A program made the position numbers and the translations under genes. Below are positions 8,348 through 35,502 of a stretch of 60,755 bases of DNA, in pieces. This stretch comes from an uncultured Gammaproteobacteria bacterium (GTDB lineage: Bacteria; Patescibacteriota; Patescibacteriia; CAYZDG01): NCBI GenBank assembly GCA_964536515.1, contig CAZHXI010000001.1, positions 97,480-158,234 of the forward strand. Direction: 5' to 3'. Position 1 is the stretch's first letter. The number at the start of each line of letters is the position of its first letter. Under the pieces are notes generated by a model. The model did not search any database. It had not been told where the DNA came from and saw only the letters and a list, made by a program, of their open reading frames with translations.

Positions 8348-9106
8348 ATGGCCACCGTCGTTCTCGCCATCGCCGGCCTGGTAGCCGGCAGCTTCGTTAG
8401 CGCCTGGCTGCACCGGCTCCGCACCGGTACATCTGTGGTCGTCGGCCGCTCGGCCTGCCCCAGCTGCGGCCACCAGCTCGCCTGGTACGATTTGCTGCCC
8501 GTGGCTAGCTGGTTGATGCTCCGCGGCCGCTGCCGCTACTGCAGCCAGCCGATTAGCTGGCAGTACCCTGCGCTGGAGCTGGCGCTGGCCATCCTGTTCG
8601 TCCTCGCCCCACTGGGCAGCGGCGCCATCGCCGTAGCGGCGTACCTCGCCGCCTGCCTGCTGCTGGTTGCCGCCGCTACGTACGACGCCCGCTGGATGGA
8701 GCTGCCGGACATCATCAGCTGGCTGCTGGTGGCCGCGGGCGTACTGCGGATAATCGGCGTTGCGCTGGCGAGCGGTACCTGGGCTCCGGTGCTTTTGAAC
8801 GCCGCGCTCGGCGCTGCCGTGGCCGGCGGCTTCTTTGCGCTGCAGTACCTCGTCTCACGCGGAAGGTGGATTGGCAGCGGCGACATTATCCTGGGCGCCG
8901 CCGCCGGCCTGCTGGTCGGATGGCCGGGTAGCCTGCTGGTGCTGGTGGTGGCCTACGTGGTCGGCGGAGCGGTGGCCGTGCCGCTGCTGGCGCTCCGCCG
9001 GCGCGGGTGGTCTACGGCGGTGGCATTCGGCCCCTTCATTGCGGTGGGAACGTGGGTGGCGATGCGGTTCGGCACCCAGCTGACCCAGCTGCTGGGCTGG
9101 GTGTAG
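8348..9106 (+). CDS. pilD: Prepilin peptidase (A24 family, PilD-like)
   Basis: Zn-finger region 'CPSCGHQLAWYDLLPVASWLMLRGRCRYCSQPISWQYPALE'. Catalytic-Asp contexts 'YDARWMELPD' and 'GSGDIILGAAAG'. The protein is polytopic. Confidence 0.9.
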   Translation: MATVVLAIAGLVAGSFVSAWLHRLRTGTSVVVGRSACPSCGHQLAWYDLLPVASWLMLRGRCRYCSQPISWQYPALELALAILFVLAPLGSGAIAVAAYLAACLLLVAAATYDARWMELPDIISWLLVAAGVLRIIGVALASGTWAPVLLNAALGAAVAGGFFALQYLVSRGRWIGSGDIILGAAAGLLVGWPGSLLVLVVAYVVGGAVAVPLLALRRRGWSTAVAFGPFIAVGTWVAMRFGTQLTQLLGWV

Positions 9107-9114
9107 GTAGCCGG

Positions 9115-9208
9115 GTCGAAAATTCGTTGGTCGATTGTCGGGGGTAGGGTATACTTGGGTTGATTCTCAGGTGCTTTTATGCTACGACCAACGATCAACG
9201 ACCAACGA
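9115..9208. repeat. Inverted CGAnnAA-heptad cassette, copy 1 (no cargo)
   Basis: The left arm is 9115-9140 (GTCGAAAATTCGTTGGTCGATTGTCG). The right arm is 9185-9208 (CGACCAA CGATCAA CGACCAA CGA). TCGTTGGTCG is the exact reverse complement of CGACCAACGA. Confidence 0.75.
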
Positions 9209-10120
9209 TCCCGGCGTCCCGCCTTCACCCTCCTAGAGGTGCTGGTGGTAATGGCTATAATGGCGATCATCATGGGCGTTTCGGTCTACCAGTTCCGTCG
9301 GGGTGAGGCCAGGCAGGACCTACGGACCGCCGCCGACGACATAAAGGCTGCCTGGGCCGAGATGCAGGGCCGGGCGCTCGCCGGTTCGCCGACGCCGTCG
9401 GATGCGGTTCGCGAGGTCGGGGTGTTCGTGCAGCCGTACGGCGATCGCCCAACCACGGCCCACGGCCTGCTGCTCTACGGGACCCTGCCCGATCCGGATA
9501 TTCCGTATTCGACGTTCGTGCCCGACGACCCAACTCCCGCCGAGGTCGAAGACTACGCCGGCATGCTGCCCGGGCAGCAGGTGCTCAACCAGCCGTTCGT
9601 GCTGCTGGGCTGCGCTACGGTACTCTCGCCTCGCCCCTCGCGTTGCTGGATACCCATTCCCGAGTACTCGCCGGTGCTGCCGCCGAATACCTACATAGAC
9701 AAGGGGAGCATTCAGCTGGCTGCCTCAACAACCGATGCCGGTGGCCTCTACGATTTCGTACCATTCCTCCTGGATGCTACCAGCAATCCGTTCGCCTTCC
9801 ACCCCCACTTCGACTTCGAGCGGTGCGTGGCGGCGGAGTGGCTGCCCCGGTACCAGTACTACTACAATAATCCTACGCCGGGGAGCGAGAACCCCGACGT
9901 AACAATGGCGAGGTACCTGTACCTGGGCATTCGGGCGCCGCAGCCAACCTTTACCATCAATGGCTGGCAGGGCTGCGGCGTGCTACGGTTCGCGCTGCGC
10001 AGCAATCTAGACGAGCGCCTACCCGAGGACCTGCGAGCCAAGCTGTGGCTGCAGTTTGACATGCGAACCGGCCGCATCAGCACGGCTAACGAGGAGGCCG
10101 GCCTACCGGACCGTCCGTAG
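9179..10120 (+). CDS. Prepilin-type N-terminal cleavage/methylation domain protein (pseudopilin)
   Basis: N-terminus 'MLRPTINDQRSRRPA/FTLLEVLVVMAIMAIIMGV' has the class III signal peptide pattern. The gene follows pilD. Confidence 0.8.
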   Translation: MLRPTINDQRSRRPAFTLLEVLVVMAIMAIIMGVSVYQFRRGEARQDLRTAADDIKAAWAEMQGRALAGSPTPSDAVREVGVFVQPYGDRPTTAHGLLLYGTLPDPDIPYSTFVPDDPTPAEVEDYAGMLPGQQVLNQPFVLLGCATVLSPRPSRCWIPIPEYSPVLPPNTYIDKGSIQLAASTTDAGGLYDFVPFLLDATSNPFAFHPHFDFERCVAAEWLPRYQYYYNNPTPGSENPDVTMARYLYLGIRAPQPTFTINGWQGCGVLRFALRSNLDERLPEDLRAKLWLQFDMRTGRISTANEEAGLPDRP

Positions 10121-10121
10121 C

Positions 10122-10718
10122 ATGGCACGATTCCGCCCCGGCCAGACGCTCATCGAGGGCATAATCGCCATCGCCGTCGTTACGGTAGGCTTGATGGGCG
10201 TCATCGGCCTCGCCATTAGCAACCAGGCTTCTGCCCAGGCCATCGGCGACCGGGCTGTGGCAACCGCCCTGGCGCGCGAGGGGCTAGAGGTGGCCAAGAA
10301 CATACGTGACAGCAACTGGCTAGCGGGTCGGCCGTTCAGCCAGGGTTTGCTCGACGGCACCTCCGCCGTTCCGGAGAGCAGCTTCGCCCAGGTTGGCTCC
10401 CATTGGGGGCTAGCCTTCGGGCCATACGGCGACTTCGCCGACGACGCAACCCAGGTTACCTGGCTGCCATCAGATGGCCGCTACGGGCAGCGGGACGGCG
10501 GCGATGCCACCAAGTTCCGGCGCCGGCTGGAGCTCTCTGCCCTGTGTCGGCCCAGCGGCGATACCGGCTTGAACTTTACCTACGACGCCTCGGGTTCCAC
10601 CGGCTGCGGCAGCGGCGAGCAGGTGGTCGGCGTGCGCGTGCGCAGCTTCGTGCAGTGGCCCCAGGGCCCGGGGCTGCGGACCATCGTCCTCGAGCTGAGG
10701 CTGTTCGATTGGAGGTAG
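10122..10718 (+). CDS. Prepilin-type protein (pseudopilin)
   Basis: 'MARFRPG/QTLIEGIIAIAVVTVGLMGV' is a prepilin-like leader followed by a hydrophobic helix. The ATG at 10122 is in frame within track ORF 10056..10718. Confidence 0.7.
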   Translation: MARFRPGQTLIEGIIAIAVVTVGLMGVIGLAISNQASAQAIGDRAVATALAREGLEVAKNIRDSNWLAGRPFSQGLLDGTSAVPESSFAQVGSHWGLAFGPYGDFADDATQVTWLPSDGRYGQRDGGDATKFRRRLELSALCRPSGDTGLNFTYDASGSTGCGSGEQVVGVRVRSFVQWPQGPGLRTIVLELRLFDWR

Positions 10719-10721
10719 GGG

Positions 10722-11162
10722 TTCGTTTGTCGAAAATTCGATTGTCGAAATATCTAGGCTTATGGTTAGCGATTCGCAGGGAAAAAATTATCGAGATTTG
10801 ATTGCCTGGCAGAAGGCAATGGATTTAGTCACATTAGTTTACAAGCTGACTGAGAAATTTCCGCAGCATGAGCTGTACGGATTAACATCTCAAATTCGGC
10901 GTTGCGCAGTGTCTATTCCCTCGAATATTGCCGAGGGTAGCAGGCGAGGGACGAGAAAGGAGAATGGGCACTTCCTATATATTGCTTACGGTTCGGGAGC
11001 GGAGCTCGAAACGCAGCTCGAAATCGCTGATCGACTAGGCTACAGCAGCGACGTCACTCGTACGGAAACACGCCGAGTCCTCGATGATGTTATGCGGCTT
11101 CTCAATCGTTTGACGAAGAGCTTCACGGTATGATTCGACCAACGACCAACGACCAACGACGA
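10722..11162. mobile_element. Inverted CGAnnAA-heptad cassette, copy 2, carrying a four-helix-bundle gene
   Basis: The left arm is 10722-10750 (TTCGTTTGTCGAAAATTCGATTGTCGAAA). The right arm is 11134-11162, (CGACCAA)x3 followed by CGACGA. The enclosed ORF is visibly AT-richer than the flanks. Mobility is inference only. Confidence 0.45.
10762..11133 (+). CDS. Four-helix-bundle protein ('23S rRNA intervening sequence protein' family; Avd-like fold)
   Basis: 'DLIAWQKAMDLVTLVYKLTEKFPQHELYGLTSQIRRCAVSIPSNIAEGSRRGTRKENGHFLYIAYGSGAELETQLEIA' matches the family hallmark motifs (IPSNIAEG..., GS..ELETQL). Confidence 0.85.
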   Translation: MVSDSQGKNYRDLIAWQKAMDLVTLVYKLTEKFPQHELYGLTSQIRRCAVSIPSNIAEGSRRGTRKENGHFLYIAYGSGAELETQLEIADRLGYSSDVTRTETRRVLDDVMRLLNRLTKSFTV

Positions 11163-11801
11163 TCTCGTTCCGGCTTCACGGTCATCGAGATCATCATAGT
11201 GATGGCTATCTTCAGCATCGTGCTGGGGGTCATCATCCAGATATTCATATTCACCACCCGTACGCAGCGTCGGAGCCGCAGCGTGCAGGAGGCTTACGCG
11301 CAGGGTAGGGCAGCGGTCGAGGGGGTGGCGCGGGAGCTGCAGAACGGCTCGGTGGACTACGGCTACTACTCCGACCCCGCCCACGCCGCAGATAGCCTCG
11401 AGGCCCAGCCCGTCGACGTTACCGCGCTGCGCGACTCCCAGGGCCAGTCGGTACGGTTCCGCTGCGTGGAGAACCTGGCCAACGGCGCGGAGCAGGCTTG
11501 CGATGCTGACACTCCCGAGCGCGGGCAGGTGGAGCTGTGCCGCGGCAGCGGGTGCGACGCTACCCCGCCCGCCTGGGCTGGCGTTACCGATGAGGCTACC
11601 GACGTCACCGCTTGGTCGGTATGGCTGGGGCCGGAGGACGATCCGTTCCGACGCGATCCGGATGACGTAGCTAGGTACCTCGCCGATGTTCAGCCCTGGC
11701 TAACCGTGGCGGCCACGGTGCAGCCCGCGCCCGTCTCCGGCGTTCAGCTGCCCGAGGCCAGGGTGCAGGCTACGGTCTCCAGTAGGTCGTACCTACGCTA
11801 G
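11130..11801 (+). CDS. Prepilin-type N-terminal cleavage/methylation domain protein
   Basis: 'MIRPTTNDQRRSRSG/FTVIEIIIVMAIFSIVLGV'. Its ATG overlaps the stop of the four-helix-bundle gene (ATGA). Confidence 0.8.
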   Translation: MIRPTTNDQRRSRSGFTVIEIIIVMAIFSIVLGVIIQIFIFTTRTQRRSRSVQEAYAQGRAAVEGVARELQNGSVDYGYYSDPAHAADSLEAQPVDVTALRDSQGQSVRFRCVENLANGAEQACDADTPERGQVELCRGSGCDATPPAWAGVTDEATDVTAWSVWLGPEDDPFRRDPDDVARYLADVQPWLTVAATVQPAPVSGVQLPEARVQATVSSRSYLR

Positions 11802-11802
11802 T

Positions 11803-17833
<6,031 letters not shown>

Positions 17834-23111: not shown

Positions 23112-23501
23112 TGGTGGAGATGGCGGGGGTTGCACCCGCGTGCACACGCTCGTGGCAGGACGTTCTACACGCGTACCCCGTTCGAGAGGTTTAGGTTCAG
23201 GCAGTAGAGAGCGGGGGAGAGCTGCCGGTTCCGAGCCGACCTGTATGCAGCCTCGCACGGATCGGCGGCGTGCGGGCGGGCCTCGACGGTATGGCACCCG
23301 GGTCCAGCCCGCGAGACAGGGCTGGTCGGATGGCGTTGGCCCTTAGGCGAACGCGGGAGCGAAGGCAGGGGCGCGGAAAGCGCTCGCTACCTTAGCCATG
23401 ACATTTTTGGCATGTCTGCCTGCGGGACTCCGTTGACGTTGGTTTCCCAGTCGCCGGCGTGCCCGTCCTACGGTGAGCTATGTGGCAAAGTACGGCATCC
23501 C
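23112..23501 (-). ncRNA. ssrA: tmRNA (SsrA)
   Basis: The 3' end GCGGG-UGCAACC-CCCGC-CAUCUCC-ACCA pairs with the 5' end GGGGAUG, with G3:U70. An internal tag ORF begins after 'AAAAAUGUCAUG': GCU AAG ... GCC UAA, giving AKVASAFRAPAFAPAFA*. The gene is adjacent to smpB. Confidence 0.85.
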
Positions 23502-23551
23502 CCCTCCGCTTCCCGTCGTCGGGGATCGGGGGGTGGCGGCCGTACGCGCTA

Positions 23552-24068: not shown

Positions 24069-24575
24069 ATGTCCGATATCCGCCGATTCAGCCGTACCCC
24101 CGACAGCCCGGCTGCCGAGGAAGGGCGTTGGGCCGATTCTCCGCCGGTTCAGCGACGCTGGGGACTGGTGGTGGGCGGAGCTACGCTCGTCATCGTGGCC
24201 GTGGTTGCGGCGCTCAAGCTGTCTACCGGCAGCGTGCTGGGTCTGTGGCCGAGCGCGCCGACGTGGCAGGCTGTATTCCTCTCCAATAGCACCGTCTACT
24301 TCGGCCAGGTCGGCTCCAGCGGCGGCCAGTGGCTGGAGATGCACGACATTTACTACCTGCAGCGAGCCCAGACTCCGCAGCCGTCCGGCGCGCCAGATGA
24401 GCAGGTCGACCAGAGCAAGCTGGTGCTCATTAAGCTGGGCAACGAGCTCCACGGCCCCCAGGATAAGATGCACATCAACCGGGACCACGTCGTCTTCATT
24501 GAAGATTTGAAGGCCGACTCGCAGGTGGTGAAGGCGATCGATAGCTACCTGCAGGCCCAGGCTCCGGCTAGGTAG
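24069..24575 (+). CDS. Membrane-anchored hypothetical protein
   Basis: The ATG at 24069 lies within track ORF 23970..24575. It has one TM segment (WGLVVGGATLVIVAVVAALKL). It is the first gene of the surface locus. Confidence 0.5.
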   Translation: MSDIRRFSRTPDSPAAEEGRWADSPPVQRRWGLVVGGATLVIVAVVAALKLSTGSVLGLWPSAPTWQAVFLSNSTVYFGQVGSSGGQWLEMHDIYYLQRAQTPQPSGAPDEQVDQSKLVLIKLGNELHGPQDKMHINRDHVVFIEDLKADSQVVKAIDSYLQAQAPAR

Positions 24576-24577
24576 CC

Positions 24578-25954
24578 ATGGCCGCACGGCTGAGCGTAGC
24601 GGCGACGCTCCTGGCGCTGGCGGCGGCATTCGGTCCGCCCATCGTACGGGCGGAAATGAATAGCGCCAGCTACCGGATAGACCGCGACGTCATTAGCTAC
24701 GGCGGCGGCGAGAGCCAGTCCGGTAGCTACCAAGCCTTCGCCAGCCTGGGCGACTTCGCGGCTGGCTTGAGCCAGTCGGCGAGCTACGTGGTGAACGCTG
24801 GCCAGCCGGGGCAGACGAACGCCGTCATTACGCTGACGCTGGATAGCCCCACAGTCTCGCTCGGCACGCTCACGCCCGGTACCCCGGTCGGCGACGGGAC
24901 CGTCATTACGGTTGCGACCGATGCGCTGAACGGCTACAGCCTGTCTACCTCGTACAGCGGCGCAATGACGTCCGGCGCATACAACATCGCCGACTTCGTG
25001 GGCACGGTTGCCGATCCGGTGCCGTGGACCGACAACTGCGTGGCCAGCTCCACGCAGTGCGGCTTCGGCTTCTCGCTGCAGTTCGATACCGCGCTGGCCG
25101 ATTCCGACTTCAACGCCAGCGCAGACAGCGCCGCCCTAAGGGCGAACGGAACGGGCCAGGATTGGTACGAGAGCCGCGCCCAGGCGCCTACCATGCTAAC
25201 CCTCGACGAGGCCGCGATCGGCAGCAACTCCACCAAGAAGGCGCGGCTCGCATCCAGTACCACCCAGAACGTCTACCTGTCGCAGGAGTTTGCGGCCAGC
25301 GCTACATCAACGTTCATGGCGCAGTGGGACGTGTTCGTGGACGACGTGCTGGACGACAGCACGCGAGACCGTGCCGCGGTCATGTTGGTCGGCGACGACT
25401 CCGGCGGCACCAATGGCCCCAACTCGGCCAGCACCGAGCGGTTCGTCCACCTGGCTTTCTGGAAGAACGGCGGCGGCGATACCGGCTCTGCCGTGCTGGT
25501 GGCGCAGGAGGCGGGCGATACGTTCAATGATTCTACGGTGTGGCGCCAGGTTAAGACGGACATGAGCCTAGACCAGTGGTACACCATCCGCGTCGTCGGC
25601 AACCTCGCCGCCGATACGTACGACGTGTACGTGGACGGCGTGCTGGCGGCGAGCGGGGTCGCCGCGCTCACCGCCAAGTCCAGCGTCGGGTACATTTCGT
25701 TCGCCAGCTGGAGCGACAGCCGCGGCGCCTACTACGTGGATAACATTACGGCCGATATCGGGGGCGTGCCGAAGTGGGGGAACGGCACCGACTTCGCCGC
25801 CTTCACCACTACGGCTGCCGAAGTCTACAGCCGCGGCGGGTACAGCACGGCGGCGGATACAGCTACGGTCCGCTACCGCGCCGACGTTCCGGTAACCCAG
25901 CCCACCGGCTCGTACCAGACCACCATTACCTACACCGCGACCGCGACGCTGTAG
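24578..25954 (+). CDS. Secreted beta-rich protein with inserted LamG/concanavalin-like module (WxL/CscB-like ends)
   Basis: Signal peptide (...PPIVRA/E). 'SASY' repeats. 'FVHLAFWKNGGG...WYTIRVVGNLAADTYDVYVDGVLAASG' looks like a laminin-G-type jelly roll. The C-terminal 'PTGSYQTTITYTATATL*' parallels the ends of the next two genes. Confidence 0.5.
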   Translation: MAARLSVAATLLALAAAFGPPIVRAEMNSASYRIDRDVISYGGGESQSGSYQAFASLGDFAAGLSQSASYVVNAGQPGQTNAVITLTLDSPTVSLGTLTPGTPVGDGTVITVATDALNGYSLSTSYSGAMTSGAYNIADFVGTVADPVPWTDNCVASSTQCGFGFSLQFDTALADSDFNASADSAALRANGTGQDWYESRAQAPTMLTLDEAAIGSNSTKKARLASSTTQNVYLSQEFAASATSTFMAQWDVFVDDVLDDSTRDRAAVMLVGDDSGGTNGPNSASTERFVHLAFWKNGGGDTGSAVLVAQEAGDTFNDSTVWRQVKTDMSLDQWYTIRVVGNLAADTYDVYVDGVLAASGVAALTAKSSVGYISFASWSDSRGAYYVDNITADIGGVPKWGNGTDFAAFTTTAAEVYSRGGYSTAADTATVRYRADVPVTQPTGSYQTTITYTATATL

Positions 25955-25992
25955 CCTTCCCGCGCACGGGGGCGTATAATTGTTACGTAGCA

Positions 25993-26643
25993 ATGACTAG
26001 CATGGAGTACACGCAAGCAGCAGCGAGGAGCTCGTCTCTGCGGATAGCCGCAGCAACGGCTGCTGCCGTCCTCGTCGGCACCGTCGCCTTCGGCGCGCTG
26101 GAGGCGGGCTACCTGGCGGCCGCCGTGGACGAGGACCAGGTGGAGATTTCGCTGGTGGTGGACGCGGTTCTCTCCATCAGCAGCCCGGCCAACGTCAGCC
26201 TCGGCACCATCAACGGCACCGGCCAGAGCGTCACGAGCAGCGCCGACTTCAACGTCATCACCAACAACACCTCCGGCTACCGCTTCGACATCAAGGCGTC
26301 GAGCAGCCCGGCCATGCGCTGCTCGAGCGGCGGCTGCGCGGTGAACAGCGACTCGTTCGCCGACTACACCCCGGCTACCGCCGACGTGCCCGAGACCTGG
26401 AGCGTGGCGGCGAGCGCCAGCGAGTTCGGCATCTCGGCCAGCGGCACCGCGGCCAGCTCCAGCTTCCTGACCGGCCAGACGTACTACAACCTCACCACCG
26501 CCTACCGCTGGATCGCCGGGCAGAACACCCAGACAACCGGCGCCACCACCAGCGTCATCTACCGGGCGGAGATCGGGGCGAGCAAGGTGCAGCCGACGGG
26601 CGTGTACACGGCTACCACCACCGCCCAGGTGACCACGCTGTAG
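25993..26643 (+). CDS. Secreted beta-rich protein (WxL/CscB-like), duplicate A
   Basis: The ATG at 25993 is in frame within track ORF 25774..26643. It has a signal-like N-terminus. The C-terminal 190 aa are identical to 26721..27359. Confidence 0.6.
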   Translation: MTSMEYTQAAARSSSLRIAAATAAAVLVGTVAFGALEAGYLAAAVDEDQVEISLVVDAVLSISSPANVSLGTINGTGQSVTSSADFNVITNNTSGYRFDIKASSSPAMRCSSGGCAVNSDSFADYTPATADVPETWSVAASASEFGISASGTAASSSFLTGQTYYNLTTAYRWIAGQNTQTTGATTSVIYRAEIGASKVQPTGVYTATTTAQVTTL

Positions 26644-26651
26644 ATCGGCGG
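26082..26651 (+). repeat. 570-bp perfect direct repeat, copy 1
   Basis: Line-by-line comparison with 26798-27367 (offset 716 bp) showed no mismatch. Confidence 0.9.
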
Positions 26652-26720
26652 TTACAAGATGCTCCCGAATGGGGTATAGTATATCGGTAAGTTGGACTGT
26701 GGATAACAGGTAAACAGACA

Positions 26721-27359
26721 ATGAATTTAGAGAGCAAGAGAACTACGGCAGCTGGGCGTTTGGTCTTAGCGGCTATGGGCGTTTCGCTCTGCAGCTACGT
26801 CGCCTTCGGCGCGCTGGAGGCGGGCTACCTGGCGGCCGCCGTGGACGAGGACCAGGTGGAGATTTCGCTGGTGGTGGACGCGGTTCTCTCCATCAGCAGC
26901 CCGGCCAACGTCAGCCTCGGCACCATCAACGGCACCGGCCAGAGCGTCACGAGCAGCGCCGACTTCAACGTCATCACCAACAACACCTCCGGCTACCGCT
27001 TCGACATCAAGGCGTCGAGCAGCCCGGCCATGCGCTGCTCGAGCGGCGGCTGCGCGGTGAACAGCGACTCGTTCGCCGACTACACCCCGGCTACCGCCGA
27101 CGTGCCCGAGACCTGGAGCGTGGCGGCGAGCGCCAGCGAGTTCGGCATCTCGGCCAGCGGCACCGCGGCCAGCTCCAGCTTCCTGACCGGCCAGACGTAC
27201 TACAACCTCACCACCGCCTACCGCTGGATCGCCGGGCAGAACACCCAGACAACCGGCGCCACCACCAGCGTCATCTACCGGGCGGAGATCGGGGCGAGCA
27301 AGGTGCAGCCGACGGGCGTGTACACGGCTACCACCACCGCCCAGGTGACCACGCTGTAG
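26721..27359 (+). CDS. Secreted beta-rich protein (WxL/CscB-like), duplicate B
   Basis: It has a distinct N-terminus (MNLESKRTTAAGRLVLAAMGVSLCSY) followed by sequence identical to duplicate A. It is preceded by an AT-rich spacer containing TATAGTATAT. Confidence 0.6.
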   Translation: MNLESKRTTAAGRLVLAAMGVSLCSYVAFGALEAGYLAAAVDEDQVEISLVVDAVLSISSPANVSLGTINGTGQSVTSSADFNVITNNTSGYRFDIKASSSPAMRCSSGGCAVNSDSFADYTPATADVPETWSVAASASEFGISASGTAASSSFLTGQTYYNLTTAYRWIAGQNTQTTGATTSVIYRAEIGASKVQPTGVYTATTTAQVTTL

Positions 27360-27367
27360 ATCGGCGG
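26798..27367 (+). repeat. 570-bp perfect direct repeat, copy 2
   Basis: See copy 1. Confidence 0.9.
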
Positions 27368-27410
27368 CCATTTGCGCCCCCGGCGCCGTTGGCCTAGAGT
27401 CAAAAAAACT

Positions 27411-28379
27411 ATGAGCCGAGCCTACTACCTGCTCTCTATAGCCTCGGTAGGAGCCGCACTTGCTGTGGGTTCCGGTGTAGCTCACGGCGCATCGACCAGC
27501 ACCGTCAATGCCCCCGCGAACGGGATGTTTTCGGTCAGCCCGGCACGACAGGAGATTGAAATTGAGCCCGGGGCGACCGTCACCAAGTACATTGACGTAG
27601 TCAACAGGCTGGGTCGTCCCAGTAGGTACGTGGTGGAGGTTAACCCCTTCGTCGCCGGGGCACCGGGAGACGGCGGCGTCGAGGTCCCCCTGGTAGAGCC
27701 GCCGAACTCAGCCGTCAGCTGGATCCGTCCTGAGCTAGACGAGTTCATTCTGCAGGATGGCGAGCGCCTGAAGATGGCGGTAAAGGTTTCGGCGCCTGCG
27801 AATGCCGGCGCAGGTGGACACTACGCCGGCGTATTCATCTCTAGCCACTCGCTGGAGAAGCCACTGCCGACGTCGAACATCAATGTGGTTACGCGCGTCG
27901 GCTCGCTATTCCTCATCAATGTAAAGGGCGACGTGGTGGAGGCTGGCCGCATCAGCCAATTCTCGGCGCCGCGCGTCCATACCCGCCTCTCGCCGGTAAC
28001 CTTCGACGTTGCCTTCAAGAACGAGGGTACCACCCACGTCGCGCCGCACGGTACGGTAGAGGTTAGCAATCTGTTCGGAACACGCGTCGCAGTCCTGCCC
28101 GTAGAGGCCTGGTACGTGCTGCCGCAGTCGGAGCGGAGCCGCCAGGTGACCTGGGATAGGCGGTGGCTGTGGGGTCCCTACCGCGCCACCCTCAATCTGA
28201 CCTACGGCCGCGCCGACGACCTGAATGCAGACGCCAGCATCCTCATCTGGGCTGCGCCGTGGCGAATGGTAGCCATCGTGCTCCTCGCGCTCATCGCGTT
28301 CTGGCTGCTGTGGCGGCAGTACCTATCTCGGATTCACATCAGCCTATCCGGCCCCAAGGCGCCGAACGATGGCGCGTAG
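27411..28379 (+). CDS. Signal-peptide protein with C-terminal TM anchor (CscA/DUF916-like)
   Basis: 'FSVSPARQEIEIEPGATVTKYIDVVNRLG' beta-sandwich start. C-terminal anchor 'WRMVAIVLLALIAFWLLWRQYLSR'. The ATG at 27411 lies within the track ORF. Confidence 0.5.
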   Translation: MSRAYYLLSIASVGAALAVGSGVAHGASTSTVNAPANGMFSVSPARQEIEIEPGATVTKYIDVVNRLGRPSRYVVEVNPFVAGAPGDGGVEVPLVEPPNSAVSWIRPELDEFILQDGERLKMAVKVSAPANAGAGGHYAGVFISSHSLEKPLPTSNINVVTRVGSLFLINVKGDVVEAGRISQFSAPRVHTRLSPVTFDVAFKNEGTTHVAPHGTVEVSNLFGTRVAVLPVEAWYVLPQSERSRQVTWDRRWLWGPYRATLNLTYGRADDLNADASILIWAAPWRMVAIVLLALIAFWLLWRQYLSRIHISLSGPKAPNDGA

Positions 28380-29223
28380 GTTGCTGGCCGGCGCCGTGGC
28401 TCTGGCGCTCGCCGCGGTCGGTACCAAAGTCAGCGCGGCGACGGTTTCTCTGTCGCCGCTGTTCTTAAGCTACGACCTGCCGCAGGGTGCCACCCAGCAG
28501 ATGGAGGTTGCCGTGGCGAACCCCGGGAGCGAGGCGGTGGATATTCAGCTAGAGAGCGACCGCTACCCCAGCCCCGGCGACGGTAGCCCGCTGCCGCGTA
28601 GCCAGTCGCTGGAGCCGTGGCTGTACGGGCCAGCCGAGCCAATTACCCTGCAGCCTGGTGAGGCGGTGAGGGTCCCGGTGGAGCTACGGGTGCCGCTGGA
28701 GGCGGCGAACGGGAGCTACTACGGCATCGTGGCTGCCCGGGCGGTGCAGCGCGGCGGCAGCATTTCGGTAGCGGGGCGGGTAGCTACCGTCGTCCTGGCC
28801 AACGTCGGTTCGCCGCTGGATGCTACCGGGCAGATCGATAGCTTCAGCCTGCAGCGGGGGGGCGAGCGGTGGGAGGCTACCGTTTCGTACGAGAATACCG
28901 GCAATGCGCACTTCGTTCCCAGCGGCACAGTCTCCTTCCGCTCCTGGCCTGCAGGTGTCGCCGCCGAAGTCGGCCTGGAGTCGCGGCCGGTGCTGCCCGG
29001 AACCGTCCGTCCGCTGCGCGCGTCCACGCCCCGGGCGACGCTTGGCTGGGGCGTAGCTGTGGCTACGGCGAGGGTGGTCGACGGCAATGGCGTGGTGCGA
29101 ACTGCCAAGGACGTGTACGTGCCGCGCTCCATTAGAGCTACGCTGGCCCTGCTGACGGCCCTGGCTGTTGGGAGTACGATGTACGTACGAAGAAGGAAAC
29201 GTACCCTCCATGGCACGGCGTAG
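28369..29223 (+). CDS. Signal-peptide protein with C-terminal TM anchor (CscA/DUF916-like), paralog
   Basis: 'VSLSPLFLSYDLPQGATQQMEVAVANPGSEAVDIQL'. C-terminal anchor 'LALLTALAVGSTMYVRRRKR'. It overlaps the previous gene by 11 nt. Confidence 0.5.
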   Translation: MARRLLAGAVALALAAVGTKVSAATVSLSPLFLSYDLPQGATQQMEVAVANPGSEAVDIQLESDRYPSPGDGSPLPRSQSLEPWLYGPAEPITLQPGEAVRVPVELRVPLEAANGSYYGIVAARAVQRGGSISVAGRVATVVLANVGSPLDATGQIDSFSLQRGGERWEATVSYENTGNAHFVPSGTVSFRSWPAGVAAEVGLESRPVLPGTVRPLRASTPRATLGWGVAVATARVVDGNGVVRTAKDVYVPRSIRATLALLTALAVGSTMYVRRRKRTLHGTA

Positions 29224-30763
29224 CTTACCACTGCTCCTAGCTGCGTTCGCGGTCGGCATCGCGCTGCCGGCTGCAGCATCGACGGTAGCAGACCAGGTAA
29301 CGGTATCGCTCACCGTCAGTTCCACCTCAACGCCGACGTCTACCCCGTCTGAGCAGCCGTCTGGAGGCGGGGGAGGGGCGCCGCTTCCGGCCACGCCCCT
29401 GGTGGTGAGCGACGTCAGCATTACGTACCTCTCTCCGGACGAGGTGCTCATCAGCTGGCTAACGAATATGCCGGCTACTACCGTGCTGCGCTACGGCAGG
29501 ACCCTGCAGTACGAGGAGGCCACCGCGGCCTACACGGACGCCTATACCCTGCGCCACGAGGTTTCCCTAACCGGCCTGCAGCCTGGGTCCCTGTACCACG
29601 GGCAGATTATGGGGGCCACCGCGGCTGGCCAGCAGGTGGTTAGCAGCGACTTCGTGTTCTCGACCGAGGAGGAAGCCGACGGCACGCCGCCGGCGAACGT
29701 GGGGAGCCTGCTGGTGGTCCCCGGCGACGGGCAGATTGCCCTCAGCTGGCAGAACCCAACGGACCGAGACTTCGCCGGAGTGGCGGTGGTCCGTAGCGCC
29801 GCCGGCTTCCCGTCCAGCGTGGCCGACGGAGCGGTGGTTACCCGAACGGCGGGGACATCGTTCAACGATACGGGTCTCACCAACGGTCGCCGCTACTACT
29901 ACGCCCTATTCACATACGACAGCACGCTCAACTACTCGTCCGGAGCCATCGGCAGCGGCGTGCCGCAGGCAGCTGCCGCGCCGGGGGAGCCGCAGCAGCC
30001 GCCCCCTCCCCAGCCCGTGATACCGCCGGACTACGAGCCTGTCCCCCCAACCCAGGCGTTGCCACCCTCGGCGGTGCAGGTAGCAGCCTACCAGGGCTCT
30101 GTGGTGCTGGCAGCCAGCGCTACCGGCACGGTCAACGTCATAGCCGGCGAGTCCTTCACCATCGTCGTGCCCTCCTTCCAGCTCCAGAAGTCGGTGAGCC
30201 AGGTACTGGTAGAGCTGCAGATCCCCGGGGGAACGCAGTGGTACCTGCTGCAGGTAGAGCCCGGCCAGTCCAGCTACCGTGCCACGCTGCCGGCGACCTT
30301 GGCGCCGGGATCGTACGTAGCTAGGGTGCATATCCTCTACGTCGATAGGACTCAAGACAGCGTAGCCAAGGTGATTATCGTCAACGCCCGCGGCCAGGTC
30401 GTTGGCGCAGACGGCCAGCCGCTGCCCGAGGCGGTAGTGGTGCTGTGGGTGAGGCGCGGCACGTCTTGGCAGCTCTGGCAGCCCGTGGAGTACGCCCGAA
30501 ACCCAGTCGTAGTCGGGGAAAATGGCGGCTTCGGCTTCATGGTGGACGGTGGGCGGTACCGCGTGCAGGTGCTGCGGGGAGGGTTCGAGCCCTGGGACGA
30601 GGAGGTAGAGGCCCGGAATGGGATTGTGGCGCCGGTCGTAACGCTGCGACGTGCGTCGCTCGGCTCAGCCGGAGGCTACGCTGGTGCAGCGACGAACTAC
30701 GTGCTAGTCGCGCTCGCGTTGCTGGTCGCAGCTCTAACCGTGAAGCTCGTCCGCCGCGGGTAA
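29210..30763 (+). CDS. Surface protein: Fn3-like domains, Pro-rich linker, CarboxypepD_reg-like domain, C-terminal TM
   Basis: Signal 'MARRSLPLLLAAFAVGIALPAAAS'. 'VSDVSITYLSPDEVLISWLTNMPATTVLRYG' and 'GDGQIALSWQNPTDRDFAGVAVVR' are Fn3-like. 'GQVVGADGQPLPEAVVVLWV...GGRYRVQV'. C-terminal 'YVLVALALLVAALTVKLVRRG'. Confidence 0.55.
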   Translation: MARRSLPLLLAAFAVGIALPAAASTVADQVTVSLTVSSTSTPTSTPSEQPSGGGGGAPLPATPLVVSDVSITYLSPDEVLISWLTNMPATTVLRYGRTLQYEEATAAYTDAYTLRHEVSLTGLQPGSLYHGQIMGATAAGQQVVSSDFVFSTEEEADGTPPANVGSLLVVPGDGQIALSWQNPTDRDFAGVAVVRSAAGFPSSVADGAVVTRTAGTSFNDTGLTNGRRYYYALFTYDSTLNYSSGAIGSGVPQAAAAPGEPQQPPPPQPVIPPDYEPVPPTQALPPSAVQVAAYQGSVVLAASATGTVNVIAGESFTIVVPSFQLQKSVSQVLVELQIPGGTQWYLLQVEPGQSSYRATLPATLAPGSYVARVHILYVDRTQDSVAKVIIVNARGQVVGADGQPLPEAVVVLWVRRGTSWQLWQPVEYARNPVVVGENGGFGFMVDGGRYRVQVLRGGFEPWDEEVEARNGIVAPVVTLRRASLGSAGGYAGAATNYVLVALALLVAALTVKLVRRG

Positions 30764-30854
30764 GGAGTTCGTCGGCGTCGGGAATATCGCCCACCGGGGC
30801 GTTTTTTTGTATCCGAAGGGTGCCTACCGTCTCCTGATTCAAGTTTCACGACTC

Positions 30855-30884
30855 TTCACCAAAGACGGTACTTGTAAGTATAAT
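30855..30884 (+). promoter_or_regulatory. Candidate sigma70-type promoter (TTCACC-18 bp-TATAAT) in the AT-rich spacer upstream of the giant ORF
   Basis: TATAAT lies at 30879-30884. A 7-bp hairpin (TCGTCGT/ACGACGA, 30965-30983) sits in the putative 5'UTR. Confidence 0.4.
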
Positions 30885-31000: not shown

Positions 31001-34000
31001 ATGATCCTACGAACTCGCTACAGGACCGTTCCTCCCGTGAGGAAGCGTGTAGCTACGCTGCTGTCCAGCAGGAGGGCACCCCTACCCAAGGGTCCGCCTC
31101 GCTGGTGGCGTCTGGTGAGCAGCCTTCTATTCAGCGGATCGTTGCTTCTCGTGGGTAGCGTGTGGTACCTGGGGCAGCGCGCTAGCCCCACCGAGGCTGC
31201 AGACCAGCCGAACCCAACGGTCAGCTACCAGGGCAAGCTGTCTGATTCCAGCGGAAGCGCCGTTGCCAACGGAATGCAGTCCGCCGCCTTTGCTATCTAC
31301 GCAGCTGCCAGCGGCGGCACGGCGCTGTGGACCGAGACGTGGGGAACCTCGACCTCCTTCCAGACCAGCCTATCGGCGCAGTCGGTTACGTCCAGTGTCT
31401 CGCTGACCTACACCGCGCCTACCACCACGGACGAGGCTAACCTGTACGTGTACCACACGCTGTACAACATCAACCGGCGCGACCAGGTAACGGTTACGGC
31501 GGTAGATACGGGTACCAATACAATCACCATTACCCCCACGGCTAAGACGTGGGAGAGCGGGGACTACATTACGAACAAGCTGGTGACGTTCGATGGCCTG
31601 TTCAGCGTGCGGCTGCCCGCGACGTCTACGCTGGAGGCTATATTCAACCAGGCGTCTACGACGCGGCTATTCTTGGGCGTGAACATTAACGGCGACGGCG
31701 AAATGCAGCCGCGCAAGCAGATTACGTTCGCGCCGCTGGCTATCAATGCGCTGTACCTGGGCGGAGTGCCCTCTACATCCTTCGCGCGGCTAGACATTGC
31801 CAATACCTTCGCTACTACCACGTTCACCGGCTCGCCCGGTGGCACGGCGGTCAACCAGGGCGGGCTGTACGTAAACCCCGCGTCACCCGGAGCAGACCAG
31901 ACCCTGCTGGGCATTGCGAACAACGGCAGCGAGCGGCTGCGTGTAGACGCCGAGGGAGACGTGTTCGCCAGCGGCACCCTATCCGTTCTGGCAATTAAGA
32001 CGACCTCCTCGAACCCGCTGCTGGTGTACGGCGGTGCGGCAGACAGCTACGTGCAGGTAGGCCAGACGTTGCCCGCCGCCTACCGCGGCTTGGCAGCTAC
32101 ATCGTCCGATGATCTATTCGTGGCCGACCAGCTCTACGTAGACGGCCTCAGCCGGCTCGACGGCGCAGTCTACAGCTCCAGTACCCTGACCGTAACGGGC
32201 GCCACCTCGCTGCACGGCTCGCTCACCGTGAGGAATACCCTTTCGCTCCCAGATTCAACCGCGCAGCTGGACATATCTGCCGTCAAGGCGAACGGCTCCC
32301 TTTCGGCCAGCGTAATCTACGTGAACGCTGCGGTTTCTTCCGTGGCGAACGGCTACGTCATAGGCCTGGCCCACAATGGCACCGAAAGGTTCAAGGTAGA
32401 CATAGACGGCGACGTGTACGCCAGCGGCACAATCCACGCGTTCGGCTTAGCGGCGACCGGCACGACCCCCCTGCTGCTGTACGGGGGAGGCTCGGGTAGC
32501 TACGTGCAGACCGGCTCGAGCCTGCCCTCCGCCTACCGCGGCTTCAGCGCAACCACCAGCAAGAGCCTGTTCGTTACCGACGACCTGTACGTAAGCGACG
32601 TGGTGCGGATGGACGGCGCCGTCAGCGCATCGAGCTCGCTGCAGGTAACGGGCGCCTCCACCTTCTACAATGATGTGACGGTACAGGGGACGCTAATCAT
32701 TCCCGATACCGGCGGAGGCCTAAGCGTAGGCACCGTAGGTGTTGACTTCGCGAACTGGGTTAACTTCAACGCCGCTGGCTACGTAGATAACTGGGAGAAG
32801 GCTCCGGTGGCAATTACCGCGGCTAGCGCCGACCCCATGTCTTTCCTGCTGGGTGCGGGAACCGGCGGGACGGAGGCGTTCTCGGTACGCGCCGGCGGGT
32901 ATGTGTTCGCATCTGGGACCTATACCGGCTTAGGCCTGACTGGGCTAGCCGACCAGGCACTGGCGGTGCAGGGTGGCGGCAACACGGGCTACGTGCTCAT
33001 AGGTGGAGCTCTGCCCGCGGGTTACCGAGGTCTGCCCGCCACCTCGACCCGTGACCTATTCGTAGCCGGCGCGCAGTTCGTAGACGGCACGGCGCTGTTC
33101 GACGGTGGCGTATGGGCCAGCAGCACGCTGCAGGTGGGCGACCTCTCCACCTTCTACGCCACCAGCACCTACGCGGCGGGTGGAATACAGATTGCCGGGT
33201 TAAATATCACGAACTCCGGTGCCCTGGGGTCGAAGAAGCTGATAATTGGGGATGCTTCCGACGCCACCCCGTACTTCATGTTCGAGCTAGATGGCTCAAC
33301 TGCATTCATAGATTCGAGCAGCTACGTAACCTTCCGTGACTCGATTTCCTTCGACTCCAGCGGCGACGTGTACTACATACCAAACGGCATGACGCTCGGG
33401 AACGGGGGGACGAACGACAGCATCGACTTCCGTGACGACGCCAACTCATCTGCCGTCGGCAACATAAACCTCGACCTCGATCGGGCCTTCCCCATCATCT
33501 CGTCCCCGAACACCGCGACCACGTCTATCGCCGACACGCTGCTCGTCAGCTCTACCGATTCGTTCTACATCCGCAGCATAGTCAATACCTCTAACGTGGC
33601 TAGCCGCATGGCGTTCGACGACACGAACGATGAGTTCATCATCGACGTGCAGACTAGCTCTACGGGCGCCGGTCCATTGGACGTAGCGGTGAAGCTAGAT
33701 GACCAGGCTGCCGGCCTCTCGTACTTCCGGGTGCGCAGCAGCACCACGGCCGTGTGGAGCGTGGATAGCGCGGGCACCGTGGGCGCCGGTGGCAGCGACG
33801 TGGCCGAACGGTACCCGTCTGCAGAGCTGCTGCTGCCGGGCGATGTCGTAGCCGCCGACCCAACCCACGCCGGCTACATCCGCCGCGCCACCGGCGGAGC
33901 GGGCGAGTCTATCATCGGCGTGGTCAGCACCAAGCCCGCCATTATCCTCGGCTTCTACGACGCAGGAGCCGAGACCCTGGGCTACGACGTGGCCCTGGTG

Positions 34001-34960
34001 GGCCGTGTGCCCGTACGGGTGACGGACGAGAACGGACCCATTTCAATCGGCGACCTGCTGACGCTCGGCTCGGAGCCGGGCACCGCCGTGCGCCGAGTCG
34101 GCGGCGGGGTAGCGCTCGGCACGGCGCTGGAGGCACTGGCTACCAGCAGCGCTGGGTCGGTGACCACGTTCATCAACGTGTCTACCCAGCCCGACGTGCT
34201 GGAGGTGGTGCCGTCTGCCTCCCGGGCGGCGGGGCTGAAGGTCTACCGCTTCGCCCCGTACGCCGGCACCATCGAGGTGGCGAGCCTGGTGGTTACCGAA
34301 TCGATCGAGGTCCGGGGTAGCGTCAGGGTCCGCGGCAGCCTGCAGCTGGACGGCGCGGTGCTGACGGAGTTCTGGGATGCGTCGGACGGTGCGCTCCGCG
34401 TGGGCGACGCCGCGGCCATCGTCGGCCCCAACGAGGTGGACCGGACGTGGGCAGACCGCAGCCCCACGCTGCCGGCCATTGGCGTGGTGGCCGAGGTGGT
34501 GCCCATTGAGCAGGTAGACGCTACCACTACGCTGGAGTACCTGACGCTGCTGGCGTCGCGCGGCCAGCTGGTAGACCCCTCGCAGCTGCGGCGGCTGCGC
34601 GTGGCGGTGGGCGGCACGCTCGCCGGGTTCACCGGCCTGCTGCCGGGTACCCGCTACTACCTGGCGACGCAGCCGCCGTACCCGTCAGCCGGCACCAGTA
34701 GCCAGGAGGCGTTGGCAGCCGAGGCGCCCACGGCGGTCGGCGTCATCCAGCAGCTGCTGGGCATTGCGCGGGATGAGCGGTCGCTGCTGCTGTTCGTCTC
34801 GCCGCAGTACAAGCTCAACGAGCCGCCGCCGGCCCCGGTGGTAATAACGGTGCCGGTGCCGTCCCCAGCTCCGCAGCCGTCTCCACAGCCGCCGGAGAAG
34901 CCCCAAGAGCCGCCGCCGGAGGCTACCCCGGCGCCGACTCCATCAGAACCATCGCCGTAG
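31001..34960 (+). CDS. Giant (1319 aa) fibre-like surface protein with three ~150-aa tandem repeats and a Pro-rich tail
   Basis: N-terminal TM (WWRLVSSLLFSGSLLLVGSVWYL). 'VSYQGKLSDSSGSAV...ALWTETW...FDGLFSVRL' is a tail-fibre-like motif. The repeats carry 'NG(S/T)ER(L/F)(R/K)VD..GDV(F/Y)ASGT...LL(V/L)YGG...Y(R)G(L/F).AT(S/T)S..LFV.D.LYV'. The C-terminus has PxP repeats. Confidence 0.6.
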   Translation: MILRTRYRTVPPVRKRVATLLSSRRAPLPKGPPRWWRLVSSLLFSGSLLLVGSVWYLGQRASPTEAADQPNPTVSYQGKLSDSSGSAVANGMQSAAFAIYAAASGGTALWTETWGTSTSFQTSLSAQSVTSSVSLTYTAPTTTDEANLYVYHTLYNINRRDQVTVTAVDTGTNTITITPTAKTWESGDYITNKLVTFDGLFSVRLPATSTLEAIFNQASTTRLFLGVNINGDGEMQPRKQITFAPLAINALYLGGVPSTSFARLDIANTFATTTFTGSPGGTAVNQGGLYVNPASPGADQTLLGIANNGSERLRVDAEGDVFASGTLSVLAIKTTSSNPLLVYGGAADSYVQVGQTLPAAYRGLAATSSDDLFVADQLYVDGLSRLDGAVYSSSTLTVTGATSLHGSLTVRNTLSLPDSTAQLDISAVKANGSLSASVIYVNAAVSSVANGYVIGLAHNGTERFKVDIDGDVYASGTIHAFGLAATGTTPLLLYGGGSGSYVQTGSSLPSAYRGFSATTSKSLFVTDDLYVSDVVRMDGAVSASSSLQVTGASTFYNDVTVQGTLIIPDTGGGLSVGTVGVDFANWVNFNAAGYVDNWEKAPVAITAASADPMSFLLGAGTGGTEAFSVRAGGYVFASGTYTGLGLTGLADQALAVQGGGNTGYVLIGGALPAGYRGLPATSTRDLFVAGAQFVDGTALFDGGVWASSTLQVGDLSTFYATSTYAAGGIQIAGLNITNSGALGSKKLIIGDASDATPYFMFELDGSTAFIDSSSYVTFRDSISFDSSGDVYYIPNGMTLGNGGTNDSIDFRDDANSSAVGNINLDLDRAFPIISSPNTATTSIADTLLVSSTDSFYIRSIVNTSNVASRMAFDDTNDEFIIDVQTSSTGAGPLDVAVKLDDQAAGLSYFRVRSSTTAVWSVDSAGTVGAGGSDVAERYPSAELLLPGDVVAADPTHAGYIRRATGGAGESIIGVVSTKPAIILGFYDAGAETLGYDVALVGRVPVRVTDENGPISIGDLLTLGSEPGTAVRRVGGGVALGTALEALATSSAGSVTTFINVSTQPDVLEVVPSASRAAGLKVYRFAPYAGTIEVASLVVTESIEVRGSVRVRGSLQLDGAVLTEFWDASDGALRVGDAAAIVGPNEVDRTWADRSPTLPAIGVVAEVVPIEQVDATTTLEYLTLLASRGQLVDPSQLRRLRVAVGGTLAGFTGLLPGTRYYLATQPPYPSAGTSSQEALAAEAPTAVGVIQQLLGIARDERSLLLFVSPQYKLNEPPPAPVVITVPVPSPAPQPSPQPPEKPQEPPPEATPAPTPSEPSP

Positions 34961-35502
34961 TGCCTACGTACCCCGTTCGAGCCCTCACCATCCGCCGCTG
35001 GCGTCGCCGCGACGCGGATAGGGTGTACCGCGTGCTGACCGAGGAGCGCGGCGTGCTGGACGTTACGGTGGCGGGCGCCGCACGGGCCACCAGCAAGCTG
35101 GCCGGCCACCTGGAGCCGTTCGCCGAGGTGCGCCTGCTGCTGGCGCGGGGGCGGGGGCCGTTCCGCGTCGCGGGGGCGGTGCAGGTGCGGCGGTTCGTGG
35201 GCGCAGACGAGGCTTCGGTGCGGCGGCTGGCGCAGGTGGCGGCGGTAGCCGAGCAGCTGGTGCCGGTAGACCAGGCGCTGCCCGGTGCGTTCGCCGCCGT
35301 CCGTGACGCCTGGGAGCAGGTGCTGTCCGAAAGTCCCGGGGGCCAGTCTGCGGCCGTTGCCAAGCTGGCCTACGACCTGTGCGGTGTGGCTGGCTACGGC
35401 GTTCCCAGTACGACCCAGCTGCCTCCAGATCCCAGCCGTTTCCTGCAGTTCATGGATACCTACCTATCGTCGGTGCTACCGCGACCTGTCCGTCTGGGGT
35501 AA
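34960..35502 (+). CDS. recO: DNA repair protein RecO (short form)
   Basis: N-terminal OB-fold pattern 'ALTIRRWRRRDADRVYRVLTEERGVLDVTVAGAARATSKLAGHLEPFAEV'. GTG start overlapping the previous stop. The assignment is by motif only. Confidence 0.55.
   Translation: MPTYPVRALTIRRWRRRDADRVYRVLTEERGVLDVTVAGAARATSKLAGHLEPFAEVRLLLARGRGPFRVAGAVQVRRFVGADEASVRRLAQVAAVAEQLVPVDQALPGAFAAVRDAWEQVLSESPGGQSAAVAKLAYDLCGVAGYGVPSTTQLPPDPSRFLQFMDTYLSSVLPRPVRLG

Follow-up and report, generated by a model that had tools for sequence, protein, structure and literature searches.

The locus at positions 24069–30763 of the window, a 60,755-nt stretch of contig CAZHXI010000001.1 (assembly GCA_964536515.1), carries seven genes (g1–g7) and probably encodes a compact, usher-less donor-strand pilus related to the Pam pilus of the Candidate Phyla Radiation (CPR). 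Its products include a PamT-like subunit (g2), two pilin-like subunits (g3, g4), two membrane-anchored chaperone candidates (g5, g6) and an anchor candidate (g7). The Pam pilus was described in Candidatus Mycosynbacter amalyticus, a parasitic member of the Saccharimonadia, where electron cryo-microscopy of the pilins PamA and PamB revealed polymerisation by donor-strand exchange (Troman et al., bioRxiv 2026, 10.64898/2026.03.03.709456). The pam operon also encodes PamT, an acceptor-only tip, PamC and PamD, which are PapD/FimC-like chaperones retaining a C-terminal transmembrane (TM) helix, and PamR, in which FnIII is combined with an additional strand at the N terminus and a TM helix at the C terminus and which is proposed to be both terminator and anchor of the pilus (10.64898/2026.03.03.709456). 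An earlier note on this DNA had suggested a possibly undescribed surface system resembling the Csc/WxL complexes of Gram-positive bacteria. The system can no longer be called undescribed, as the Pam preprint reports the same logic in Saccharimonadia; WxL and DUF916 go unmentioned there (10.64898/2026.03.03.709456). The locus appears to link two surface systems that have been described separately, the CPR Pam-type pilus and the Gram-positive WxLIP.

In the assembly pathway proposed here, Sec would export all components of the system in the monoderm CPR cell, and the membrane-tethered chaperones g5 and g6, each with two immunoglobulin-like (Ig) domains, would cap the incomplete Ig-like fold of the exported subunits by strand donation. 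Because g2 has an acceptor domain with a lectin insert and no donor strand, it would start the fibre and form the adhesive tip. The identical products of g3 and g4, possessing both a donor strand (DEDQVEISLVV) and an acceptor domain, could then be added head to tail by donor-strand exchange to build the shaft. The g7 protein, with a matching strand (ADQVTVSLTV) and no acceptor domain, would be inserted last, stopping growth and tying the fibre to the membrane.

Subunits, anchor and their N-terminal strands

Three signal-peptide proteins with a distinctive C-terminal motif had been described earlier in the locus, and g2, g3 and g4 do end in QPTGSYQTTITYTATATL or QPTGVYTATTTAQVTTL. The subunit family to which they belong comprises two classes, class I of about 255 aa, including g2, and class II of about 230 aa, including g3 and g4. 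The mature part of class I starts with three S-x-x-Y hairpin-like repeats, a motif seen in g2, and has no free strand. That of class II starts with a short strand of alternating hydrophobic residues, which is conserved across class-II pilins and reads EDQFTITQ... or TDEFTVQ... elsewhere. In g3, the signal peptide is followed by AAAVDEDQVEISLVV and then by the domain. The mature g3 and g4 proteins have about 170 aa, with a single beta domain after the short N-terminal strand, and no larger pilin is encoded in the locus. A single pair of cysteines at close distance occurs in each subunit, and 4 kb upstream there is a DsbA-like gene. In a direct BLASTP comparison of g2 with g4, the C-terminal motif alone aligns; the relatedness of these two proteins rests on common homologs and on jackhmmer searches started with each, which returned similar numbers of open reading frames (ORFs) from the same 87 sequences.

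The connection with Pam comes from the NCBIfam models NF058579 (CPR_pilus_PamT) and NF058581 (CPR_Pam_pilin_C), both derived from the Pam preprint (10.64898/2026.03.03.709456). The g2 protein matches PamT with E=1.2e-12 (47.8 bits, cut-off 240) over residues 6–135, corresponding to model positions 5–135 of 241, and Pam_pilin_C with E=5.3e-5 (23.3 bits, cut-off 55) over residues 404–457. PamT matches were also obtained for 19 of the 30 alignment members, consisting of g4 and its homologs, and for 54 of the 92 sequences in a larger family set (best E=1.8e-14), and g3 and g4 themselves have no NCBIfam Pam pilin match. Judged by these model matches, g2 is a distant relative of PamT and not an equivalog. 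The Pfam and NCBIfam links became significant only once whole families were scanned; the locus proteins alone gave almost nothing for g1–g6, including no Pfam match for g1–g4. Sequence searches of the PDB with g2, g4 and pilin-family profiles returned nothing meaningful and no WxL or Pam chain, and no PamA or PamB entry turned up in the PDB copies searched.

Homologs of g4 number 31 among 5.8 billion proteins and include one from a Ca. Vogelbacteria metagenome-assembled genome (MAG). The AlphaFold2 (AF2) model of g4, with a predicted local distance difference test (pLDDT) score of 82.3, shows a single beta domain after the signal-peptide helix. In a Foldseek search of the PDB, chaperone-usher pilins made up most of its 50 best matches, among them CfaB, CS20, FimA/F/G, the PapG pilin domain, PapA, CsuA/B and Caf1 (best E=1.7e-3). 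The candidate donor strand is located between the signal-peptide helix and the first domain strand of the model, with low pLDDT and no assigned secondary structure.

The mature pilin coding sequence of g3 and g4 is covered by an exact 570-nt direct repeat (26082–26651 = 26798–27367); the mature proteins are identical, and the signal-peptide and 5' regions are divergent. This repeat could be the result of recent gene conversion, of duplication or of an assembly artefact. The contigs of two close relatives end at the repeat site, that of L005 just after the pilin gene, and that of L003 starting 110 nt before the chaperone gene, and several orphan contigs of ~1.1 kb carry the pilin gene alone. 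Because repeat-induced assembly breaks would produce such a pattern of contig ends, the pilin duplication is probably real and shared with relatives.

The g2 protein carries an insert of ~220 aa (window 25010–25780, g2 residues ~145–400) that is absent from ordinary class-I proteins and had been called LamG-like in the earlier note. The insert itself has no Pfam match, and the assignment is supported transitively, through its domain family of 336 representatives, in which up to 6 tandem copies occur in proteins of up to ~4000 aa. One family member, the homolog P0274, passes Laminin_G_3 (30.2 bits vs a cut-off of 27.6), and several others weakly match sialidase-type carbohydrate-binding modules, and therefore the g2 insert may be regarded as a ConA/LamG-type lectin domain. 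The family as a whole looks under-modelled, most members escaping Pfam and occasional ones reaching Laminin_G_3.

The g7 protein is composed of a signal peptide, a donor-like strand, a Pro/Ser/Thr- and Gly-rich linker, Fn3 domains, a CarboxypepD_reg-like domain and a C-terminal TM helix at residues 489–517, in agreement with the earlier description of a C-terminally anchored Fn3 and CarboxypepD_reg protein. Its fn3 match (E=1.8e-6) and a Pur_ac_phosph_N match in Pfam are above cut-off, and CarboxypepD_reg is reached at 24.8–27.7 bits, below the cut-off of 32.3. Anchor proteins of this family begin their mature part with a class-II-type strand, followed by a Pro/Ser/Thr-rich linker. A strict regular expression for the donor strand undercounted badly and was replaced by a score-based permutation test, in which pilin and anchor N-termini are compared by their best 9-mer BLOSUM62 score. 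Across 28 non-redundant loci, the mean score was 23.5 for pilin and anchor strands of the same locus, 18.6 for those of different loci and 15.0 for shuffled anchor segments. By this measure, the two strands covary within loci and appear to co-evolve, which would be the expectation for strands that have to occupy one common acceptor groove.

Anchored chaperone candidates and competing explanations

As had been proposed earlier, g5 and g6 are paralogs (~26% identity) that start with FSVSP... and VSLSP..., respectively, and end in a TM helix and a basic tail; in the relative L003, the g5/g6 pair is retained. Modelled with AF2 (pLDDT 78.5), g5 consists of two beta-sandwich domains and a C-terminal helix at residues 284–312. 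Its top Foldseek match is the WxLIP chain 9i25_C (4.3e-12, with 244 columns across both domains), followed by the chaperones CfaA, CsuC, CupB2, YadV, DraB, EcpB and FimC of chaperone-usher systems; with WxLIP included, these matches range from 4e-12 to 1e-6. In Pfam, g5 and g6 give weak Ig-type matches only. A profile of 52 chaperone-family members, taken from related loci, matched WxLIP1 of E. faecium in the PDB (9i25_C and 9i1y_A) with E=6.5e-11, which was the only match below 1e-3. WxLIP_PGBD (PF06030, the former DUF916) was matched by 48 of the 52 members (best 1.6e-8); with the window's own proteins, the match is weak for g6 (E=0.04) and none was found for g5. DUF3324 was not detected by sequence, the second domain being matched structurally only, and no Pam chaperone model of NCBIfam matched any of the 52 chaperones.

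The profile match, the 48 of 52 Pfam matches and the top Foldseek match together indicate that the likeness to DUF916 reflects real homology, and on these comparisons the g5/g6 family is truly homologous to WxLIP. The pairing of secreted, non-anchored subunits with C-terminally anchored DUF916-like partners, which the earlier note had pointed out, is thus upheld by the WxLIP homology and the top structural match, together with the conserved synteny described below. The profile-HMM (hidden Markov model) searches suggested in that note found PF06030 in the anchored family and fn3 in g7, and neither WxL nor, by sequence, DUF3324; the structure prediction and structural search led to WxLIP. According to a previous report, WxLIP has two Ig-like domains and a TM helix, and one of its strands is predicted to insert into the WxL domain (PMC10599100).

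Several points weigh against a Pam-like pilus. The NCBIfam Pam scores all fall far under the curated cut-offs. The Foldseek E-values of the g4 model are weak (at least 1.7e-3) and its TM-scores are modest, and the g5 model was built on only 9 sequences. Close homologs of g5 number only 8. The difference between same-locus and cross-locus strand scores (permutation p<=1e-4) comes from a test that ignores phylogenetic non-independence. The rod subunit has a single domain, unlike the two-domain PamA and PamB, and direct orthology to the solved pilins does not follow. Moreover, the role described for WxLIP is that of a scaffold for cell-wall or host binding and not that of a pilus chaperone (PMC10599100). 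The analysis itself shows which genes are present, the families and folds of their products, the conserved synteny and the covariation of the pilin and anchor strands; strand exchange, assembly order, filament formation and adhesion are inferred from these.

The WxLIP homology also allows another explanation, the main rival, a non-polymeric complex of Csc/WxL type in which WxLIP-like proteins hold the secreted subunits, including the lectin-bearing one, by strand complementation without forming a fibre. In its favour, the anchored proteins are true WxLIP/DUF916 homologs, the locus combines a small and a large subunit with an anchored partner much as WxL clusters combine small WxL, large WxL and WxLIP (PMC10599100), and polymerisation or fibres are not known for WxL systems. 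However, W-x-L motifs are absent from g2–g4 and LPXTG from the locus products, as had been noted earlier; Pfam WxL gave no match at E<=1 in g2–g4 and 30 homologs, the family profile found no WxL chain in the PDB, and among the 50 best Foldseek matches of the g4 model the WxL chain of 9i25 does not appear. In fold the subunits resemble chaperone-usher pilins, by family they belong with PamT, the class-II subunits have both a donor-like strand and an acceptor domain, and the presence of a separate anchor with the same covarying strand is hard to explain without chain formation. The resemblance to Csc/WxL seen earlier thus holds for the anchored WxLIP homologs, but the locus is not a Csc/WxL cluster, and a complex of this kind seems unlikely.

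Considerably less probable still is a donor-strand fibre that assembles without chaperones, like those of TasA, the archaeal bundling pili or CanA, the anchored Ig proteins then having another role, for example in wall binding or adhesion. The g4 model does match TasA (8aur) and CanA (7uii, 9hdi) more weakly (E about 0.08–0.12), but they rank far below the chaperone-usher pilins, and the anchored two-Ig protein, which structurally matches pilus chaperones, is always next to the pilin. A sortase-dependent pilus was also considered and ruled out, there being no LPXTG and no sortase nearby.

Conservation across loci and genomic context

Metagenome contigs were scanned with the pilin alignment, and 80 loci were retrieved through the pilin alone; ORFs were annotated by jackhmmer in 90 sequences (89 loci and the window). 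Chaperone matches were found in 82 and anchor matches in 77 of these 90 sequences, the anchor gene coming straight after the PamT-like one, with no ORFs shared among the three families. In about 70 of the 80 loci, the pilin is accompanied by a chaperone, a PamT-like protein and an anchor. The chaperone and the anchor are adjacent and co-directional to the pilin almost whenever the contig is long enough. The typical co-directional order is class-II pilin, chaperone, class-I PamT-like protein and Fn3 anchor (P-C-P-A), which is complete in ~43 of the 80 loci, and ~26 more have C-P-A, many of them on truncated contigs. The cassette is kept across dozens of divergent loci of very different GC content, and the same gene order occurs in a low-GC Ca. 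Paceibacterota genome; a genome scan with a narrower chaperone alignment found one species genome, a Ca. Paceibacterota MAG. The synteny comparison therefore shows a gene set strongly conserved in related loci, of which the window has a rearranged and expanded version, with g1, a lectin-bearing class-I protein, two class-II proteins, two chaperones, the anchor and g8. An unrelated assortment of clustered envelope proteins (S-layer or wall-associated) with no common assembly pathway, which could appeal to the lack of family matches above curated thresholds for most products, is strongly disfavoured, since the P, C, P, A order and orientation are kept across dozens of divergent loci and the strands covary within them.

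Two related loci deviate from the typical arrangement. L001 (5473–10993; GCA_040384345.1, JAWVGX010000651.1) is a divergent variant with three chaperone paralogs and two ~350-aa subunits ending in YTATFTYICTA(T/S)F, in which a PKD/TM protein replaces the Fn3 anchor; it adjoins parAB, an S26 signal peptidase gene and a LytR_cpsA_psr-family gene. In L006 (4836–5774; Ca. Vogelbacteria, GCA_016181465.1), genes for an N6/N4 DNA methyltransferase and an unrelated 240-aa protein lie between the chaperone and the PamT-like gene.

The coordinates of the locus are listed in Table 1. Eight genes had been counted earlier in 24069–30763; the ORF check found seven, g1–g7, all on the plus strand, and the eighth lies outside this range. 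The genes are co-directional, as had been stated, but overlap only at g5/g6 (11 nt) and g6/g7 (14 nt), the remaining gaps being 2–77 nt, with g1 ending 2 nt upstream of g2. The start on record for g5 is the ATG, and an alternative TTG at 27372 has no exact-lookup match. The GC content is 65%; all seven genes have homologs elsewhere, and therefore they are real genes and not spurious high-GC ORFs. A terminator-like hairpin 25 nt past the g7 stop likely marks the end of the operon as judged from a consensus scan (5 sites found vs 4.6 expected), and the terminator and promoter consensus scans were at chance overall and give hints only.

Table 1. Genes and other features in and next to the locus (window coordinates).
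Feature	Coordinates	Strand	Description
g1	24069-24575	+	168 aa; one TM segment at about residues 29-60 (hydropathy)
g2	24578-25954	+	458 aa; signal peptide; PamT-like class-I subunit with lectin insert
g3	26002-26643	+	213 aa; signal peptide; class-II single-domain pilin, copy 1
g4	26721-27359	+	212 aa; signal peptide; class-II single-domain pilin, copy 2
Candidate donor strand of g4	26844-26876	+	DEDQVEISLVV, residues 42-52; identical g3 strand 716 nt upstream
g5	27411-28379	+	322 aa from ATG; signal peptide; C-terminal TM; two-Ig-domain chaperone candidate
g6	28369-29223	+	284 aa; signal peptide; C-terminal TM and RRRKR tail; chaperone paralog candidate
g7	29210-30763	+	517 aa; signal peptide; C-terminal TM; PamR-like anchor/terminator candidate
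Donor-like strand of g7	29288-29317	+	ADQVTVSLTV; matches pilin DQVEISLVV, BLOSUM62 9-mer score 29
Terminator-like hairpin and T7 run	30788-30801	+	consensus scan only
Promoter-like site before g8	30855-30884	+	consensus scan at chance level overall
g8	31001-34960	+	1319 aa; N-terminal TM or signal anchor; outside the 24069-30763 range

The small TM protein reported earlier corresponds to g1, whose single TM segment is supported by hydropathy. It matches no Pfam, NCBIfam or PHROG family, and has a counterpart in the close relative L005 only (3.8e-85), the other ~85 loci having none; because it is confined to the closest relative, it is doubtful whether g1 is part of the system. Homologs of g8 are located directly downstream of the anchor in 22 loci. 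The g8 protein has a Pro-rich C-terminus, a weak match to a Bactofilin-type beta-helix and no PHROG match, and is possibly the 'tail fibre-like' protein of Pam neighbourhoods, a label not confirmed here.

The best named relatives of LigA are all Patescibacteria/Parcubacteria MAGs (Ca. Komeilibacteria, Ca. Kerfeldbacteria and 'Patescibacteria group'), with identities of at most 58% outside a small clade of close relatives. The host is, by these LigA comparisons, a CPR (Patescibacteria) bacterium. The 'unrelated high-GC lineage' of the earlier note is indeed high in GC, but it is not simply unrelated, as it belongs to the Patescibacteria by its LigA relatives. The flanks of the locus carry rplT-rpmI-infC, smpB, ligA, gatA, the dsbA-like gene, lgt, a short recO and ftsA/ftsZ. 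RecO (34960–35502, plus strand) has only 180 aa and matches the RecO_N domain alone, and the same truncated form is present in L003. Beside smpB, a transfer-messenger RNA (tmRNA) gene was found at 23112–23502 on the minus strand (45.7 bits vs the Rfam gathering threshold of 47, E=7e-17), which ARAGORN misses; the intergenic block is 88% identical to that of L005, whose 68-nt deletion falls outside the RNA. A type IV pilus-related cluster, preceded by FtsA/FtsZ, is located 13–16 kb upstream (8348–15831, plus strand). It comprises PilD (8348–9106), N_methyl pilin-like proteins (9179–10120 and 11130–11801) and an unannotated 1342-aa protein with no PHROG match. A type IV pilus was ruled out for the present locus, the type IV pilin and PilD genes forming this separate cluster.

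Comparison with known pili and surface complexes

Of the described systems, the Pam pilus is closer to this locus than Csc/WxL, although the locus is not an equivalog of the Pam system. With the Pam pilus, the system shares a CPR host, Sec export of all parts, the lack of an usher and a PamT-like acceptor-only subunit. The two paralogous PapD-like chaperones with C-terminal TM helices resemble PamC and PamD (g5/g6), and PamR has its counterpart in g7, an FnIII protein that likewise has an added strand at its N terminus and ends in a TM helix. A large fibre-like protein nearby and cysteine pairs in the subunits are further common features. Differences lie in the rod, which here is made of a ~19-kDa single-domain protein with an N-terminal donor strand, whereas PamA and PamB are two-domain proteins of 39–55 kDa (a 9-strand N-terminal domain, a linker donor strand and a C-terminal domain). 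Furthermore, a ConA/LamG lectin domain is inserted in the tip subunit here, Ig-like and CarboxypepD_reg-like domains are added in the anchor, and the host is of Parcubacteria type (nearest named relatives Komeilibacteria and Kerfeldbacteria) and does not belong to the Saccharimonadia or Microgenomatia. Among the window ORFs examined, there were no ATP synthase genes. The locus would represent a much simplified Pam-type pilus, reduced to a cassette of four genes whose single-domain pilin has an N-terminal donor strand. This cassette is common among lineages of Parcubacteria type, which lie beyond the classes from which Pam has been reported. For CPR bacteria, most of which are uncultured epibionts and whose mode of host attachment is an open question, the lectin domain on the presumed tip is a concrete candidate for host recognition.

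In common with Csc/WxL clusters, the locus has an anchored two-Ig protein with a TM helix, which is homologous to WxLIP (DUF916-DUF3324-TM; PDB 9i25, 9i1y). In both, an anchored partner is clustered with two kinds of subunit, a small one and a large one that has a binding domain, and WxLIP, too, is predicted to insert a strand into its subunit. By contrast, the locus lacks the WxL domain and W-x-L motif, an LPXTG or CscD-type protein and a sequence match to DUF3324, its subunits are pilin-like, it has an extra Fn3 anchor with a donor strand, and its host belongs to another phylum than Firmicutes. Through the chaperone–WxLIP homology, CPR pili are tied to the Csc/WxL clusters known from lactobacilli, enterococci and Listeria, and this homology suggests a testable hypothesis on the assembly of Csc/WxL and on the origin of chaperone-usher chaperones. 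It is conceivable, and we lean somewhat against it at present, that the CPR cassette and Firmicutes Csc/WxL are two branches of one ancient monoderm machinery, in which a membrane-tethered two-Ig chaperone of the WxLIP/PamC-D family completes beta-sandwich subunits by strand donation and hands them over. The chaperone homology is the part of this proposal that the sequence comparisons establish, and the homology of the subunits and a common mechanism are its hypothetical part. If the proposal is true, donor-strand exchange would serve to assemble, and perhaps to chain, WxL proteins as well, and the WxLIP/PamC-D family would have the periplasmic chaperones of chaperone-usher pili in Gram-negative bacteria as its soluble offshoot.

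Compared with chaperone-usher pili, no usher family is found among the locus products in Pfam and NCBIfam, the conserved cassette consists of P, C, P and A alone, there is no outer membrane and no Pfam PapD or fimbrial sequence match, the chaperones are membrane-tethered, and the candidate terminator is a TM-anchored Fn3 protein instead of a PapH-like subunit. The likeness lies in the chaperone and pilin folds, closest to those of class 5 CFA/I (CfaA-CfaB) and archaic Csu (CsuC-CsuA/B) and also to Fim and Pap, in the donor strand provided by an N-terminal extension of the rod subunit, and in the common logic of tip adhesin, rod and terminator.

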